Source: a virus
Lineage: Duplodnaviria > Heunggongvirae > Uroviricota > Caudoviricetes
Strand: one strand, 5' to 3'
Length of the DNA stretch: 7,207 nucleotides
Virus record (IMG/VR): IMGVR_UViG_2675903559_000012
Position 1 is the stretch's first letter. Every line of letters starts with the position of its first letter. Position numbers: made by a program. This document shows positions 3,001 through 6,000 of this stretch, one piece after another.

Positions 3001-6000
3001 ACCTACCGGAATTTTTTTCCGGTTAAACGTTAATCAGGCTGGTGGGCTTTACCTGTTCGGTAGGTGTTATGATTATCGTAATACCTTTCCCCCAATGGGG
3101 TAAAAGCATCAACCGTAACGAAAGTCGTTATGGTTGCCACTGATACCCCAAATTTGGGTATCACGAGTAAGACCCAAAATCTGGGTGTTACTCTTACTAC
3201 CCAAACTACGGGTAGTTTCCGTAGTTTCATGGTCGAGTTGCAGATCTGCAACTCCCCCATTAACCACAGGCGAATTTCCGCCTTCGGTCATTCCTTAATC
3301 ATCTGCGTAATCATAATGATTATTCAGCAAGCGCAATTTTGCGCTTTGCTTAAAGTTCAGCGAGTTACCGCGCCGACTTCCTCAAATTGAGGTTTCCGAA
3401 AATATCAGCGGGTTAGCGATTAAGCTGATCATTAATTAAACTGCGAAAATTTCGTAGTTTGTGACTGTCTTTCAGGCAGCTTGTTAACAGTCCTCAGAAG
3501 CGAGGGATGTAGCCACCCATTTTTGGTCCGTCGGGAATATCAACCAGTTACCGCCGCAACCGCTCCGGCTTCTTCCAGTGGTACGTTATTTTCTCCTTCT
3601 CCCGATACATCTCCACGCGGCGACGGTAGGCCAGCAACTCAAGAACTCTGGTTCGTATGTTGCGCATATCCACGCCATTAAGTTCTATACCATCACGGCG
3701 CATCACCTCAGCAACAACACGCGCATAGTTTTCGGCTGTCACGCTGTCCGGCTGCGTGGTCTGTTCGTCAGCCTGCTGGCTGATTCCAGAGACGCGGCGG
3801 ATTAATCGCAGTATTTCGGATTCAGTCATAGCGTACTACGTTACTTATCTTTATTCGGCTGCAACTTTTCCGGTACGTTTCCGGTTGTTTCTTTCAAGTA
3901 ATCAGCCAGTATCTGTGGGAGGTTGTCGGCAACTCTGGCACTGGCATTACAGGCTTTAACCACTTCCCTTTTAAGCCTATCCAGCATGGCGGGGGTAATC
4001 TGTGGGAAGCTCCTTTGCATAGTAAGCGGGAGGCTGTCCATGATTGATGAAATCTGACTCGCCAGCTTTGAAAGCGCGTACAGGCAAAACTCAGTATCGA
4101 TCACGTCACCGCGATCGCGCTCGTTTTTAAGTTCCTGCGCCTCCGCCTGTGCTGTCAGTAATCTGATCCTGACTCGTAAGAGTTCATCATCATCAATATC
4201 GCCTTTGTCGTTTGTAAGCTGGCTAATTGCATTGTTAACCCTATTGTCTATCACGCTGGCAACATCGTAAAACGCCTCACGGCCTTTACGTTCAACGGGA
4301 GTCACTCCCCACTTGTCGAACGCTGTCGCACTTACACGGCAGCTTTTCGCCATGTTTTTTTTGTTCATCAGGTGCGATTTCATTAATACACCAACTTAAT
4401 TACTGCTTCAGGTTGGTGTATTGTTTGCATCTTTCCCTTTTCATTCATAAAGATAGAGCAAACAACAAAACCACCACCACCCCCCTGAAAAGGCTCATAA
4501 ATAGCGAAAAACCGCGAGGTCGCCGCCCCGTAACGGGTCCATATGCCGGAAAGGACCCGTAAAAAAAAGCCGGATTTCTCCGGCCTTGTCTCAGATGGTT
4601 TTCAGTATGCGATCGATGTCGCCGTCATCGCCCTGGTTTCTGCCATCGTATGCCATGCCAGCTGATACGGCTTGCGGGCTGTGCATGTCCATAAAGTTTT
4701 CAAAGGCTGCGGTAAGTTCCGGCGCAACCTTCGGACGTTCCTGCTCTATGGTCATGCTAAGGATGCTTTTAGCCGTACCAACATCGATACAAGGCACGTT
4801 TGCCATTGCACGTAACAGCGGCTGATAGTCGCCAGATTCATCAAGCGCCATAATCGCATCAGCGCGCGGCTTGTCCTGCTCTTCCAGTTTGTTAAGTTGA
4901 TATATGGCCTCGTAGGTTGATAACCCTCTGTCAGCCATTGCCCGCGCTTCGGCTTTAAATTTACTCGCCAGCGGTAGCGTCATGATGCTTTCATTCGTTG
5001 CCATCGTTCCCCCTGCTTATCGGGCCAGCGGCTGAACGGATACGCCAGAACCCGCAAAGGCGGCGCATTTTTTCGCATCGGTGTCGACGCTCTCAGGCCA
5101 GTTAACGGCGGCAATATTGAATATCCCCGTCTTGTAACACTGTGCTGATTTCTGCTTTGACGTGTCCACAGGATACGAAGTCAGATAAACAGCCTTGCCA
5201 GATTCCTGACCATCCCACGGCTTAAACTCGCCATTGTCCGCCAGCATCAGCGGGGTAAATTCCTGAATAACGCCAGCATCAACGGCAAAATGTACCAGCG
5301 TCGTGGCGACCTGCTGACTGCCTGCAAATAACTCAATGTATGGAGTGTCCATAGAATCCCCCGTTAAGCAATTTTGACGGTAACAAATTTGCGAATATCT
5401 GCCGGAACCGGCTGCGGTGCGCTGTGCGTCTGCACGTACTCAATCGCCGGATCGCCGTCCTCAATCCAGTTTTTCGGGTAAAACATGTTTTGCGTTGCGC
5501 CCGTTCTTACTGCGTCCTGATCCATAATCGCACCATAGGCCACCAGCCCTTTATTGTTGGTGTTGCCCAGGACAAGCAAATCAGGCTCAAGGAAATATTT
5601 TTCTGTGCCGTCGCTGTCGGCGTATTTGCCGGAATAGACGATAAGGGCAATATCGCCCAGATAGCCTTTAAAGCTCACCACTTCGCCCAGGTTTTTACAG
5701 GCCAGCTCTGCGGCGGACTCTGAACCACGGGAAAGATCGTACAGCTCACGGAATTTTTTAAAGCTGCGTAACGTGCGCCATACCTCAGCGCCCATAATCA
5801 TGACGTTTGCGGGGCAACCAGCCTGATCAGCATAAAGCTCGATGTCATAGATTGGATCGTGTGTTTCCTTATCTGCCTCTGACCACTTTTTACCCGGTCC
5901 CTGTCTGGCGATGTTTTTACTTGGGATCTTCCAGTCTATTTCATAGCGTTCTATGCCTTCGCCCTCAATGATGTTTTTTCCGGTCGTTATCGCATTCACC

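Follow-up and report, generated by a model that had tools for sequence, protein, structure and literature searches.

The closest described counterpart of the locus considered here is the aba element of the BstA system. BstA, a protein encoded by prophages, has a KilA-N-like domain and acts by abortive infection, blocking the replication of phage DNA (PMC8585504). The cognate BstA protein is neutralised by aba, a DNA element of 63 bp whose position overlaps the beginning of bstA (Owen et al. 2021, PMC8585504). The element comprises 29 bp upstream of the gene and 34 bp of the open reading frame (ORF), and depends on terminal direct CCCGCC repeats. It is portable, its variants are specific to their cognate protein, and it works at the DNA level, either in cis or, when its copy number is high, in trans (PMC8585504). 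Here we describe an array of palindromes at one end of a phage satellite, contained in IMG/VR virus record IMGVR_UViG_2675903559_000012, whose 7,207 nucleotides we refer to as the window. Judged by sequence, the units of this array are very probably the palindromes found within the variable segment of a family of KilA-N genes of lambdoid prophages. By analogy with aba, we tentatively read the satellite array as an orphan set of predicted DNA sites for phage KilA-N proteins, with a decoy or immunity role.

The window is Escherichia coli chromosome. The host genes asr, ydgD and mdtIJ occupy positions 1-2600, a 5' fragment of tqsA ends at ∼2790-2810, which is the attachment-site (att) junction, and satellite DNA extends from there on. 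The rest of the window is the int-distal end of a ∼12-kb EcCICFT073-like phage satellite, or phage-inducible chromosomal island (PICI), inserted in tqsA. The array lies within 750 bp of non-coding DNA between the satellite's last gene and the att junction, and is composed of the following features, with types A and C as defined further below:

3137-3255: conserved non-coding cassette of ∼120 bp, containing units U1, U2 and U3, the 9-bp repeats and the 20-bp palindrome
3141-3163: U1, TGATACCCCAAATTTGGGTATCA, a C-type dyad (TGATACCC-CAAATTT-GGGTATCA) centred at 3152
3169-3189: U2, AAGACCCAAAATCTGGGTGTT, a degenerate C-type dyad (AAGACCC-AAAATCT-GGGTGTT) centred at 3179
3196-3216: U3, ACTACCCAAACTACGGGTAGT, a C-type dyad (ACTACCC-AAACTAC-GGGTAGT) centred at 3206
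3212-3229: tandem 9-bp direct repeat, GTAGTTTCC / GTAGTTTCA, variable in copy number
3235-3254: A-type perfect 20-bp palindrome, GAGTTGCAGATCTGCAACTC

U1 to U3 are thus three ACCC-N7-GGGT dyads, with centres spaced at exactly 27 and 27 bp, and a repeat search of the window recovers both the units and their dyads. The array is far beyond chance: among 1000 sequences simulated from the window with a first-order Markov model, 9 contain a perfect palindrome of at least 20 bp, and none contains an equally spaced CCC-N7-GGG triplet. The initial annotation of this region had described three dyads spaced at 27 bp and a perfect 20-bp palindrome, and the coordinates, the repeat search and the simulations all bear this description out. 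The cassette motif occurs nowhere else in the satellite element, and the cassette itself contains no consensus site for integration host factor (IHF).

The homology to KilA-N genes emerges from short matches. At E <= 1e-5 the phage collection yields nothing useful, as does nhmmer with a cassette profile, and a permissive search of the collection gives only short matches, which converge on one gene family and, within it, on one segment of at most 100 nt. U1 matches GATACCCAAAATTTGGGTATC at 21 of 22 nt inside sb46 of Salmonella phage ST64B, where it encodes SDTQNLGI, and the same unit is found in an E. coli KilA-N gene (P0042). When the majority-type left flank is included with U1, the alignment to sb46 extends over 90 nt (68%, pairwise E 4e-6). 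The sb46 DNA consists of ACCGAGGGCGGAATTCCACCCTCGG, 38 nt and GATACCCAAAATTTGGGTATCGC, encoding TEGGIPPS...SDTQNLGIA, and the commonest satellite version of ACCGAAGGCGGAATTCCGCCCTCGG, 33 nt and GATACCCTTTATTTGGGTATCGC, in which ACCGAAGGCGGAATTCCGCCCTCGG matches the ACCGAGGGCGGAATTCCACCCTCGG (TEGGIPPS) of ST64B. The arms of U3 are those of the second unit of another KilA-N gene (P0073; ACTACCC-AAAATTT-GGGTAGT). The 20-bp palindrome matches GAGTTGCAGATTTGCAACTC, which encodes SELQICNS in the KilA gene of Stx2a phage 1447, at 19 of 20 nt (26 of 31 with flank), and with its flank it also matches 'KilA' genes of SfII and others. The sb46 and Stx2a proteins belong to Pfam KilA-N, and the KilA-N genes are located in the nin region of lambdoid prophages, adjoining rusA and Q.

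In an alignment of 19 homologues, residues ∼29-75 of the KilA-N proteins consist of alternative cassettes between near-identical flanks, and fall into five types:

Type A: peptide SELQICNS (ELQICNS), DNA GAGTTGCAGATYTGCAACTC; one copy in the satellite
Type B: peptide TEGGIPP(L/S)EQNQ, a GGCGGAATTCCGCC-like palindrome followed by an IHF-consensus site (AATCAACCAGTTA or AATCAATCCGTTA); B-like units flank the satellite cassette
Type C: peptide (D/N)TQNLG(I/V), DNA GATACCC-N7-GGGTATC; three copies in the satellite
Type CC: two C units 36 bp apart, the second with the arms of U3
Type BC: a B element and then a C element, as in ST64B sb46

The peptide of each type is palindrome-encoded; for example, the codons for DTQNLGI form a palindrome that is perfect save for its central base. 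In addition, the helix that precedes the palindrome-encoded peptide (∼25 residues) co-varies with cassette type among the 19 homologues, a pattern that a simple recombination block could also produce. Because codon-constrained alternative palindromes at one position co-vary with the adjacent helix, the alignment suggests that each KilA-N protein may recognise a site within its own gene. As far as our searches show, KilA-N genes with alternative codon-constrained perfect palindromes at one position have not been described before.

Based on the unit types matched, the satellite cassette can be written as B...C-C-C-A, with the KilA-N core missing on either side. The combination of C and A is found in none of 120 cluster representatives of KilA-N genes, and no KilA-N gene was found in any satellite locus. 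Derivation from KilA-N coding DNA accounts for the open plus-strand frame of the cassette, for an in-frame indel, and for the 27-bp period, which corresponds to nine codons. The initial annotation had remarked that 27 bp is not a whole number of helical turns, and the codon count now explains this spacing.

The distribution of the cassette was surveyed in Escherichia and Shigella. Of 5426 complete E. coli genomes, 706 contain its core, in a total of 803 places and with up to six per genome, and a scan of genome contigs with the 93-aa protein, the product of the satellite's last gene, gave only two loci. The cassette is near-invariant: ∼100 copies from IMG/VR and E. coli loci reduce to ∼30 distinct versions with a mean column identity of 95%. 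The repeats are thus conserved in related elements, and the lack of such conservation, which the initial annotation had named as grounds for refutation, is not observed. Nucleotide identity of the cassette is 94%, compared to 77% amino-acid identity for the product of the adjacent 93-aa gene. Outside the cassette the flanks are mosaic, with the right junction in every case just past the 20-bp palindrome. Three independent left junctions fall at U2 (in loci L010 and L136, and in the second copy of L029), so that 3172-3254 is the minimal conserved core. The same core is kept across at least five different flanks, and the cassette is sometimes tandemly duplicated, ∼434 bp apart. The 8-bp arms of the palindrome are invariant save for one G.T in the class represented by SCU-101; this class, L027 and L052 have a single copy of the 9-bp repeat, and L140 has a 1-nt deletion at these repeats.

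The cassette is facultative, and independent of the satellite's own machinery. It is found in only 17 of the 52 distinct regions downstream of the 93-aa gene, which it adjoins in most carriers, and these carriers have different integrases, att sites, replication proteins and origin iterons, and at least four packaging types. One carrier, L248 (NZ_CP148328.1), is a 10,790-bp circular molecule deposited as a plasmid and is evidently an episomal PICI. It encodes int, AlpA, an Icd-like protein, DUF4222, a primase, a protease-capsid fusion, DUF1441 and a homologue of the 93-aa gene, and the cassette lies 46 bp past the latter and ∼560 bp upstream of int across attP.

Variation within the cassette bears on what is being maintained. 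In a 27-variant alignment, the local dyads contain two covarying pairs, both in U1, with a score (0.028) that is reached by none of 500 shuffles. The cross-unit helices of the minimum free energy (MFE) structure, in contrast, contain no covarying pair, show no excess over shuffles, and have 9 broken cells in each of two pairs. U2 shows a two-step compensated change, being A-T in the window, C.T in most copies and C-G in L136. Since the local dyads covary and the cross-unit helices do not, each unit appears to be selected as its own palindrome. Such a pattern is compatible both with a binding site for a dimeric protein and with a local hairpin, and cannot tell them apart.

Mechanical ORF calling places three frames across the array (plus strand, 3130-3390; minus strand, 3030-3260 and 3109-3291), one of which is listed as hypothetical in a few genome annotations. 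In this respect the statement of the initial annotation that no credible ORF covers the repeats calls for qualification, but the evidence speaks against translation of a gene here in the satellite. Predicted proteins over the cassette are rare, and have only the invariant core in common, with unrelated termini. One plus-strand frame is open in all 20 variants; its peptide has no match in Pfam or PHROGs, and tblastn gives nothing useful. The 36 variable sites are distributed 14:7:15 over codon positions 1:2:3, and an apparent excess of synonymous changes disappears once all 36 are tallied. The second L029 copy lacks an in-frame start, L140 combines its 1-nt deletion with an ATG>ATA change, and a stop codon and the 33- versus 38-nt frame break precede U1. 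Overall, neither conserved start and stop codons, nor an intact frame, nor a third-position bias is found, and from its sequence the satellite copy is not an intact gene. Translation of the repeats in homologues, which had also been raised as grounds for refutation, is observed in part, in that homologous palindromes are translated inside the phage KilA-N genes.

These observations are consistent with a mechanism in which the palindromes are predicted DNA-level sites for the KilA-N proteins whose genes carry them. The satellite array would then serve as a decoy or immunity site of several specificities, perhaps with IHF taking part in its assembly. Replication of the satellite to high copy would amplify the array, which may in turn titrate the KilA-N proteins produced by helper or resident lambdoid prophages, or else disarm them. 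In a more specific version, which we consider rather doubtful, orphan aba-like decoys copied from KilA-N genes would neutralise several classes of KilA-N replication inhibitors or regulators, and thereby aid satellite replication in polylysogens. The interpretations offered in the initial annotation are thus partly supported. An operator-like array for a dimeric regulator fits, and survives as the best reading, with the difference that a lambdoid phage, and not the element itself, would provide the protein, in trans; origin iterons and att arm sites do not fit.

Several points weigh against a decoy or immunity role. The database-wide E-values of the short DNA matches are poor (∼5), and the argument rests on their convergence on one segment. 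In the SCU-101 class the GGG arms of U2 and U3 are lost, and the U2 dyad is lost as well. EcCICFT073 lacks the cassette and still transfers (PMC6092414). The high conservation could reflect recent recombinational spread instead of selection, and descent may have been either from phage gene to satellite or by independent insertion of the palindromes into both. The KilA-N proteins have no BstA match in PADLOC, only a weak partial match to PDC-S22 in the KilA-N core. Finally, aba lies at the start of its gene and has direct repeats, whereas the palindromes described here are in mid-gene.

The most plausible of the rival explanations, although still an unlikely one, is that the cassette is a functionless relic, a decayed internal piece of one or more KilA-N genes formerly located at a satellite end, whose seeming conservation results from the rapid recombination and spread of satellite ends. 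The clear homology to KilA-N coding DNA, which includes a decayed 'VINGGN' after the palindrome, is what this explanation predicts, and the frame breaks and stop codons, the facultative occurrence (17 of 52 regions, with EcCICFT073 lacking the cassette) and the missing dyads of the SCU-101 class all agree with it. It accounts less well for what has survived, since only the palindrome-bearing segment is found and never the well-conserved KilA-N core, and the surviving units form an A plus C combination never seen in intact genes. Compensated changes in the dyads, conservation exceeding that of the adjacent gene, retention of one core over at least five flanks with three left junctions, and the occurrence of tandem duplications also argue against simple decay. 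Even if the cassette is a relic, two observations stand, namely the alternative palindromes of the KilA-N genes and the palindrome-plus-IHF arrays at satellite ends (see below).

A structured RNA, acting as a 3'-UTR (untranslated region) stabiliser, an insulator between convergent units or a trans-acting small RNA, is improbable. The predicted folds are very stable on both strands (z = -10.0 for plus, -7.2 for minus), but any palindromic DNA site yields a strong fold z-score, and the folding energies show no strand asymmetry. The position of the cassette, between convergent genes and downstream of the last gene of an operon, would suit an RNA, as would a terminator-like hairpin seen by eye on the plus strand at 3329-3355, and stems of neighbouring units that vary while pairing is kept. 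On the other hand, no promoter or terminator brackets the cassette, no covariance model in Rfam 15 matches within 2700-3900 at E <= 1, the MFE cross-unit helices lack covariation, and the evidence from G.U versus A.C pairs conflicts between variants.

Still less probable is that the units are selfish palindromes, i.e., mobile or recombinogenic sequences of 20-24 bp that colonise tolerant variable loops of KilA-N proteins, where they are read in frame, and the ends of satellites. In-frame reading is reminiscent of the Rickettsia palindromic elements, alternative palindromes do occur at one KilA-N position, mosaic junctions coincide with palindromes, and copy numbers change. The units are, however, far smaller than known mobile palindromic elements and are confined to KilA-N genes and satellite ends, and the co-varying preceding helix is better explained by a specificity cassette.

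Origin iterons, which the initial annotation had listed as a candidate, could take the form of a second origin or crr-like site for the satellite primase, or of a copy of a helper O-type origin; we regard both as very improbable. The layout does resemble that of lambdoid origins, with tandem dyads with A-rich centres in an open frame, a spacer and a palindrome, and the tandem CCC-N7-GGG arrays of IMG/VR are located within initiator genes, of the Phage_rep_O or HTH_36 kind. The satellite origin, however, is elsewhere, in an iteron field 3' of the primase gene, with at least 11 TCTACC repeats in the element type of the window (L002) and in EcCICFT073. Other carriers have at least nine copies of TGTTCACC, which we take to be the type I iteron of phage P4 (L003, 12660-12946; L004, 12994-13280), and AACCCGC clusters represent a third iteron type. 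The cassette is unchanged across carriers of all three types, which rejects it as a crr-like site or as iterons of the satellite's own origin. Its motif does not recur elsewhere in the element, its spacing is 27 bp and not 20-24 bp, and an AT-rich unwinding region is lacking, with 57% A+T in the 19-bp spacer. A copy of a helper O-type origin is also rejected, because it should have such an unwinding region, nhmmer detects no similarity to the lambda origin (L005), and the homologue is KilA-N rather than an O-like initiator.

A small protein encoded on the plus strand at 3130-3390 can be dismissed as the least probable rival, since its N and C termini are not conserved, its start or frame is lost in the L029 second copy and in L140, its codon-position profile is not coding-like, and no Pfam or PHROGs family matches it. 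In its favour are a few gene callers that predict it, an in-frame 9-bp indel, and its being the sole frame open in all 20 variants, but the open frame is accounted for by descent from KilA-N coding DNA.

Several other known sites were considered and rejected. The cassette is not cos, because an exact lambda-type cosN and a cosQ are located outside it, at 4517-4560, as identified against the published lambda and EcCICFT073 cos sequences. Nor is it an attP arm, as had been proposed initially in the form of an integrase or excisionase arm-binding region. It lies 330-460 bp from the att junction, beyond ∼150 bp of the core, and is unchanged at a minimum of four att sites with their integrases: at tRNA-Ile (L003), inside a prophage capsid gene (L004), in tqsA (the window and L001), beside phoQ (L136), and beside a tRNA gene downstream of mug (L137). 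L105 and L126 share the att arm sequence of the window, yet lack the cassette. As a mimic of nut or of boxA-boxB, the window has no boxA within one mismatch, and such matches are common by chance. No sigma-54 promoter, oriT, or dif/res site was matched by eye.

The remaining features of the satellite end are as follows:

2800-2812: IHF-consensus site near the att junction
2858-2866 and 2870-2878: direct repeat GACTACACC-AGT-GACTACACC, ∼60-90 bp from the att junction
3089-3100: out-of-phase fourth dyad CCCCCAATGGGG, 57.5 bp from U1
3110-3136: hairpin CAACCGTAACGA-AAG-TCGTTATGGTTG
3256-3287: right flank of the cassette, with the decayed 'VINGGN' KilA-N coding remnant and a B-like palindrome GGCGAATTTCCGCC, then TTCGG, at 3269-3287
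3329-3367 (degenerate), 3380-3415 and 3515-3550: units in which an IHF-consensus-like site follows a short GC-stem/AT-loop palindrome
3548-3829, minus strand: last satellite gene, encoding a 93-aa protein (phrog_1561) with no assigned function
3841-4383, minus strand: Nu1-type small terminase (TerS), with a match to Pfam Phage_Nu1
4440-4560, minus strand: cos site, with cosQ ACGGGTCCTTTCCGG at 4546-4560, an exact cosN GGGCGGCGACCT at 4517-4528, and a divergent G/T-rich cosB
4591-5004, minus strand: 137-aa protein (phrog_1999) resembling the C-terminus of a head maturation protease (phrog_53, E 9e-9)
5017-5352, minus strand: gpD-like decoration protein
5364-6419, minus strand: lambda E-like capsid protein
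6866-7138, minus strand: PerC homologue

The GACTACACC repeats are probably integrase arm-type sites; the same arm sequence is found in L136, L241 and L006, which are satellites at other sites. The segment at 3089-3136 is a conserved block separate from the cassette, and is kept without it in O157 genomes, Shigella, L105 and L062. The initial annotation had placed the start of the array at 3089; the unit found there (3089-3100) is a dyad, but one that is out of phase and belongs to this separate block. On the other side of the cassette, the resemblance of the right flank to KilA-N coding DNA is seen by eye when CATTAACCACAGGCGAATTT of the window is set against CATTAATGGCGGAAAT of P0029.

Beyond the right flank, the palindrome-plus-IHF units vary in their stems while the dyad is kept, and WATCARNNNNTTR matches at 3403-3415 and 3538-3550. 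In 52 unique regions past the 93-aa gene, the IHF consensus WATCAANNNNTTR occurs at 2.29 per kb compared to an expected 0.054 per kb (∼40x), and EcCICFT073 has three such sites in its last 170 bp. The 12-mer ATCAACCAGTTA, which adjoins the stop codon at the end of the 93-aa gene, recurs without change inside B-type KilA-N genes, where the palindrome-plus-ATCAACCAGTTA layout is also found, and the satellite-end units resemble this B-type segment. The ends of these satellites, including 18653-18818 of L241, may thus be regarded, from their sequences, as arrays of palindrome-plus-IHF units, which as far as our searches show have not been described before; a literature search on IHF sites or small RNAs of satellites returned nothing useful.

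Other repeats are seen in the same region of some satellites. Four or five GTCAC/GTGAC direct repeats spaced at 10-11 bp are present in L006 (3510-3570), L136 (4060-4110), L074, L126 and L127, and could be another protein-binding array, e.g., for an excisionase-like protein. In L127, ∼450-250 bp from the stop codon of the 93-aa homologue, three copies of GCGGGTTAT, an AT-rich stretch and three to four inverted copies of ATAACCCGC form an origin-like arrangement. In the window, the segment TGTGACTGTCTTTCAGGCAGCTTGTTAA at 3461-3488 was considered as a mimic of a type I-F repeat of the clustered regularly interspaced short palindromic repeats (CRISPR), as it agrees at 19 of 28 nt with what we take to be the E. 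coli repeat and keeps the hairpin with one G.U pair. This resemblance is probably due to chance, since the segment is replaced by unrelated sequence in L105 and L059.

Three observations concern the satellite genes. The 137-aa protein, encoded beside the E-like capsid and D-like decoration genes, looks like a satellite-encoded scaffold of the Nu3 type. In E. coli O26:H11 11368, positions 5981-6761 of L001 form the right end of a capsid-forming PICI (HK97-type capsid, portal, large terminase and HNH) at the same tqsA site, and are 99.7% identical to 2780-3560 of the window, including the 93-aa gene; the packaging modules of the two elements are unrelated. Lastly, 6641-6828 of the window (plus strand) has a weak Rfam match, of 26.8 bits, to the model of a small RNA from Streptococcus whose gathering score is 208. 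It is almost certainly not a member of that family, but it ends in a terminator-like hairpin at ∼6790-6828, and a terminator may be present in the intergenic DNA that separates the PerC gene from the 68-aa gene.

Among satellites, the element in the window compares most directly with EcCICFT073, which adjoins phoQ in CFT073. The two share the gene order PerC, E-like capsid, D-like decoration, 137-aa protein, cos site and 93-aa gene, followed by a non-coding end with palindrome-plus-IHF units. They differ in that the cos site of the window element lies upstream of a Nu1-family TerS gene, a position occupied by rppA in EcCICFT073, and in that only the window element has the cassette. As far as text searches show, the non-coding end is not described in the reports on Gram-negative PICIs (Fillol-Salom 2018, 2019).

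The satellite ends also recall a chromosomal arrangement. Like the repetitive IHF-binding palindromic (RIP) and bacterial interspersed mosaic (BIME) elements of E. coli, they place a short palindrome and an IHF-consensus site at the 3' end of a transcription unit. RIP/BIME elements consist of repetitive extragenic palindromic (REP) sequences flanking an IHF site; the satellite-end sequences are unrelated to REP, and their units are confined to satellites and KilA-N genes.

Among phage sites, the origins of lambda, phi80 and HK97 were read for comparison. As in the KilA-N genes, tandem dyad repeats with A-rich centres lie in frame in a flexible protein segment and are followed by a palindrome, and the site is inside the gene of the protein that binds it, such binding by KilA-N proteins being predicted here. 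The lambdoid origins differ in that the host gene is Phage_rep_O and not KilA-N, and the period is 20-24 bp as opposed to 27 or 36 bp; the cassette, moreover, has neither an AT-rich unwinding region nor sequence similarity to them. A second nin-region example is Roi of phage HK022, which reportedly binds a site in its own gene beside an IHF site, and which would therefore share with the KilA-N proteins an intragenic site paired with one for IHF. Of the Roi-type proteins, only the HK97 homologue was scanned; its domains are Rha-N and KilAC (ANT) rather than KilA-N, and no comparable palindrome was found in its gene.

If our tentative reading is correct, DNA-based neutralisation of a phage protein, so far represented only by BstA and aba, would extend to a large lambdoid KilA-N family that includes those of Stx phages, and to satellites that apparently collect such elements from several phages. 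This would be a form of counter-defence that needs neither protein nor RNA, and, in the more specific and doubtful version, it would allow the satellite, and perhaps its helper too, to replicate in polylysogens. The comparison with aba is an analogy and not a family assignment, because the KilA-N proteins are not BstA by PADLOC; NCBIfam likewise returns nothing for them, and, as a further difference from BstA, the KilA-N family described here consists of nin-region genes. What the two have in common is a DNA element that overlaps a prophage gene with a KilA-N or KilA-N-like domain, since the palindromes homologous to those of the satellite lie inside KilA-N genes, and the published BTP1 aba sequence contains a match to the IHF consensus, as do the B-type units. 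In the more specific version, the nin-region KilA-N family would represent a second BstA-like system, with a cognate DNA element inside each gene, and the satellite copy would differ from aba in being an orphan array that combines several types.

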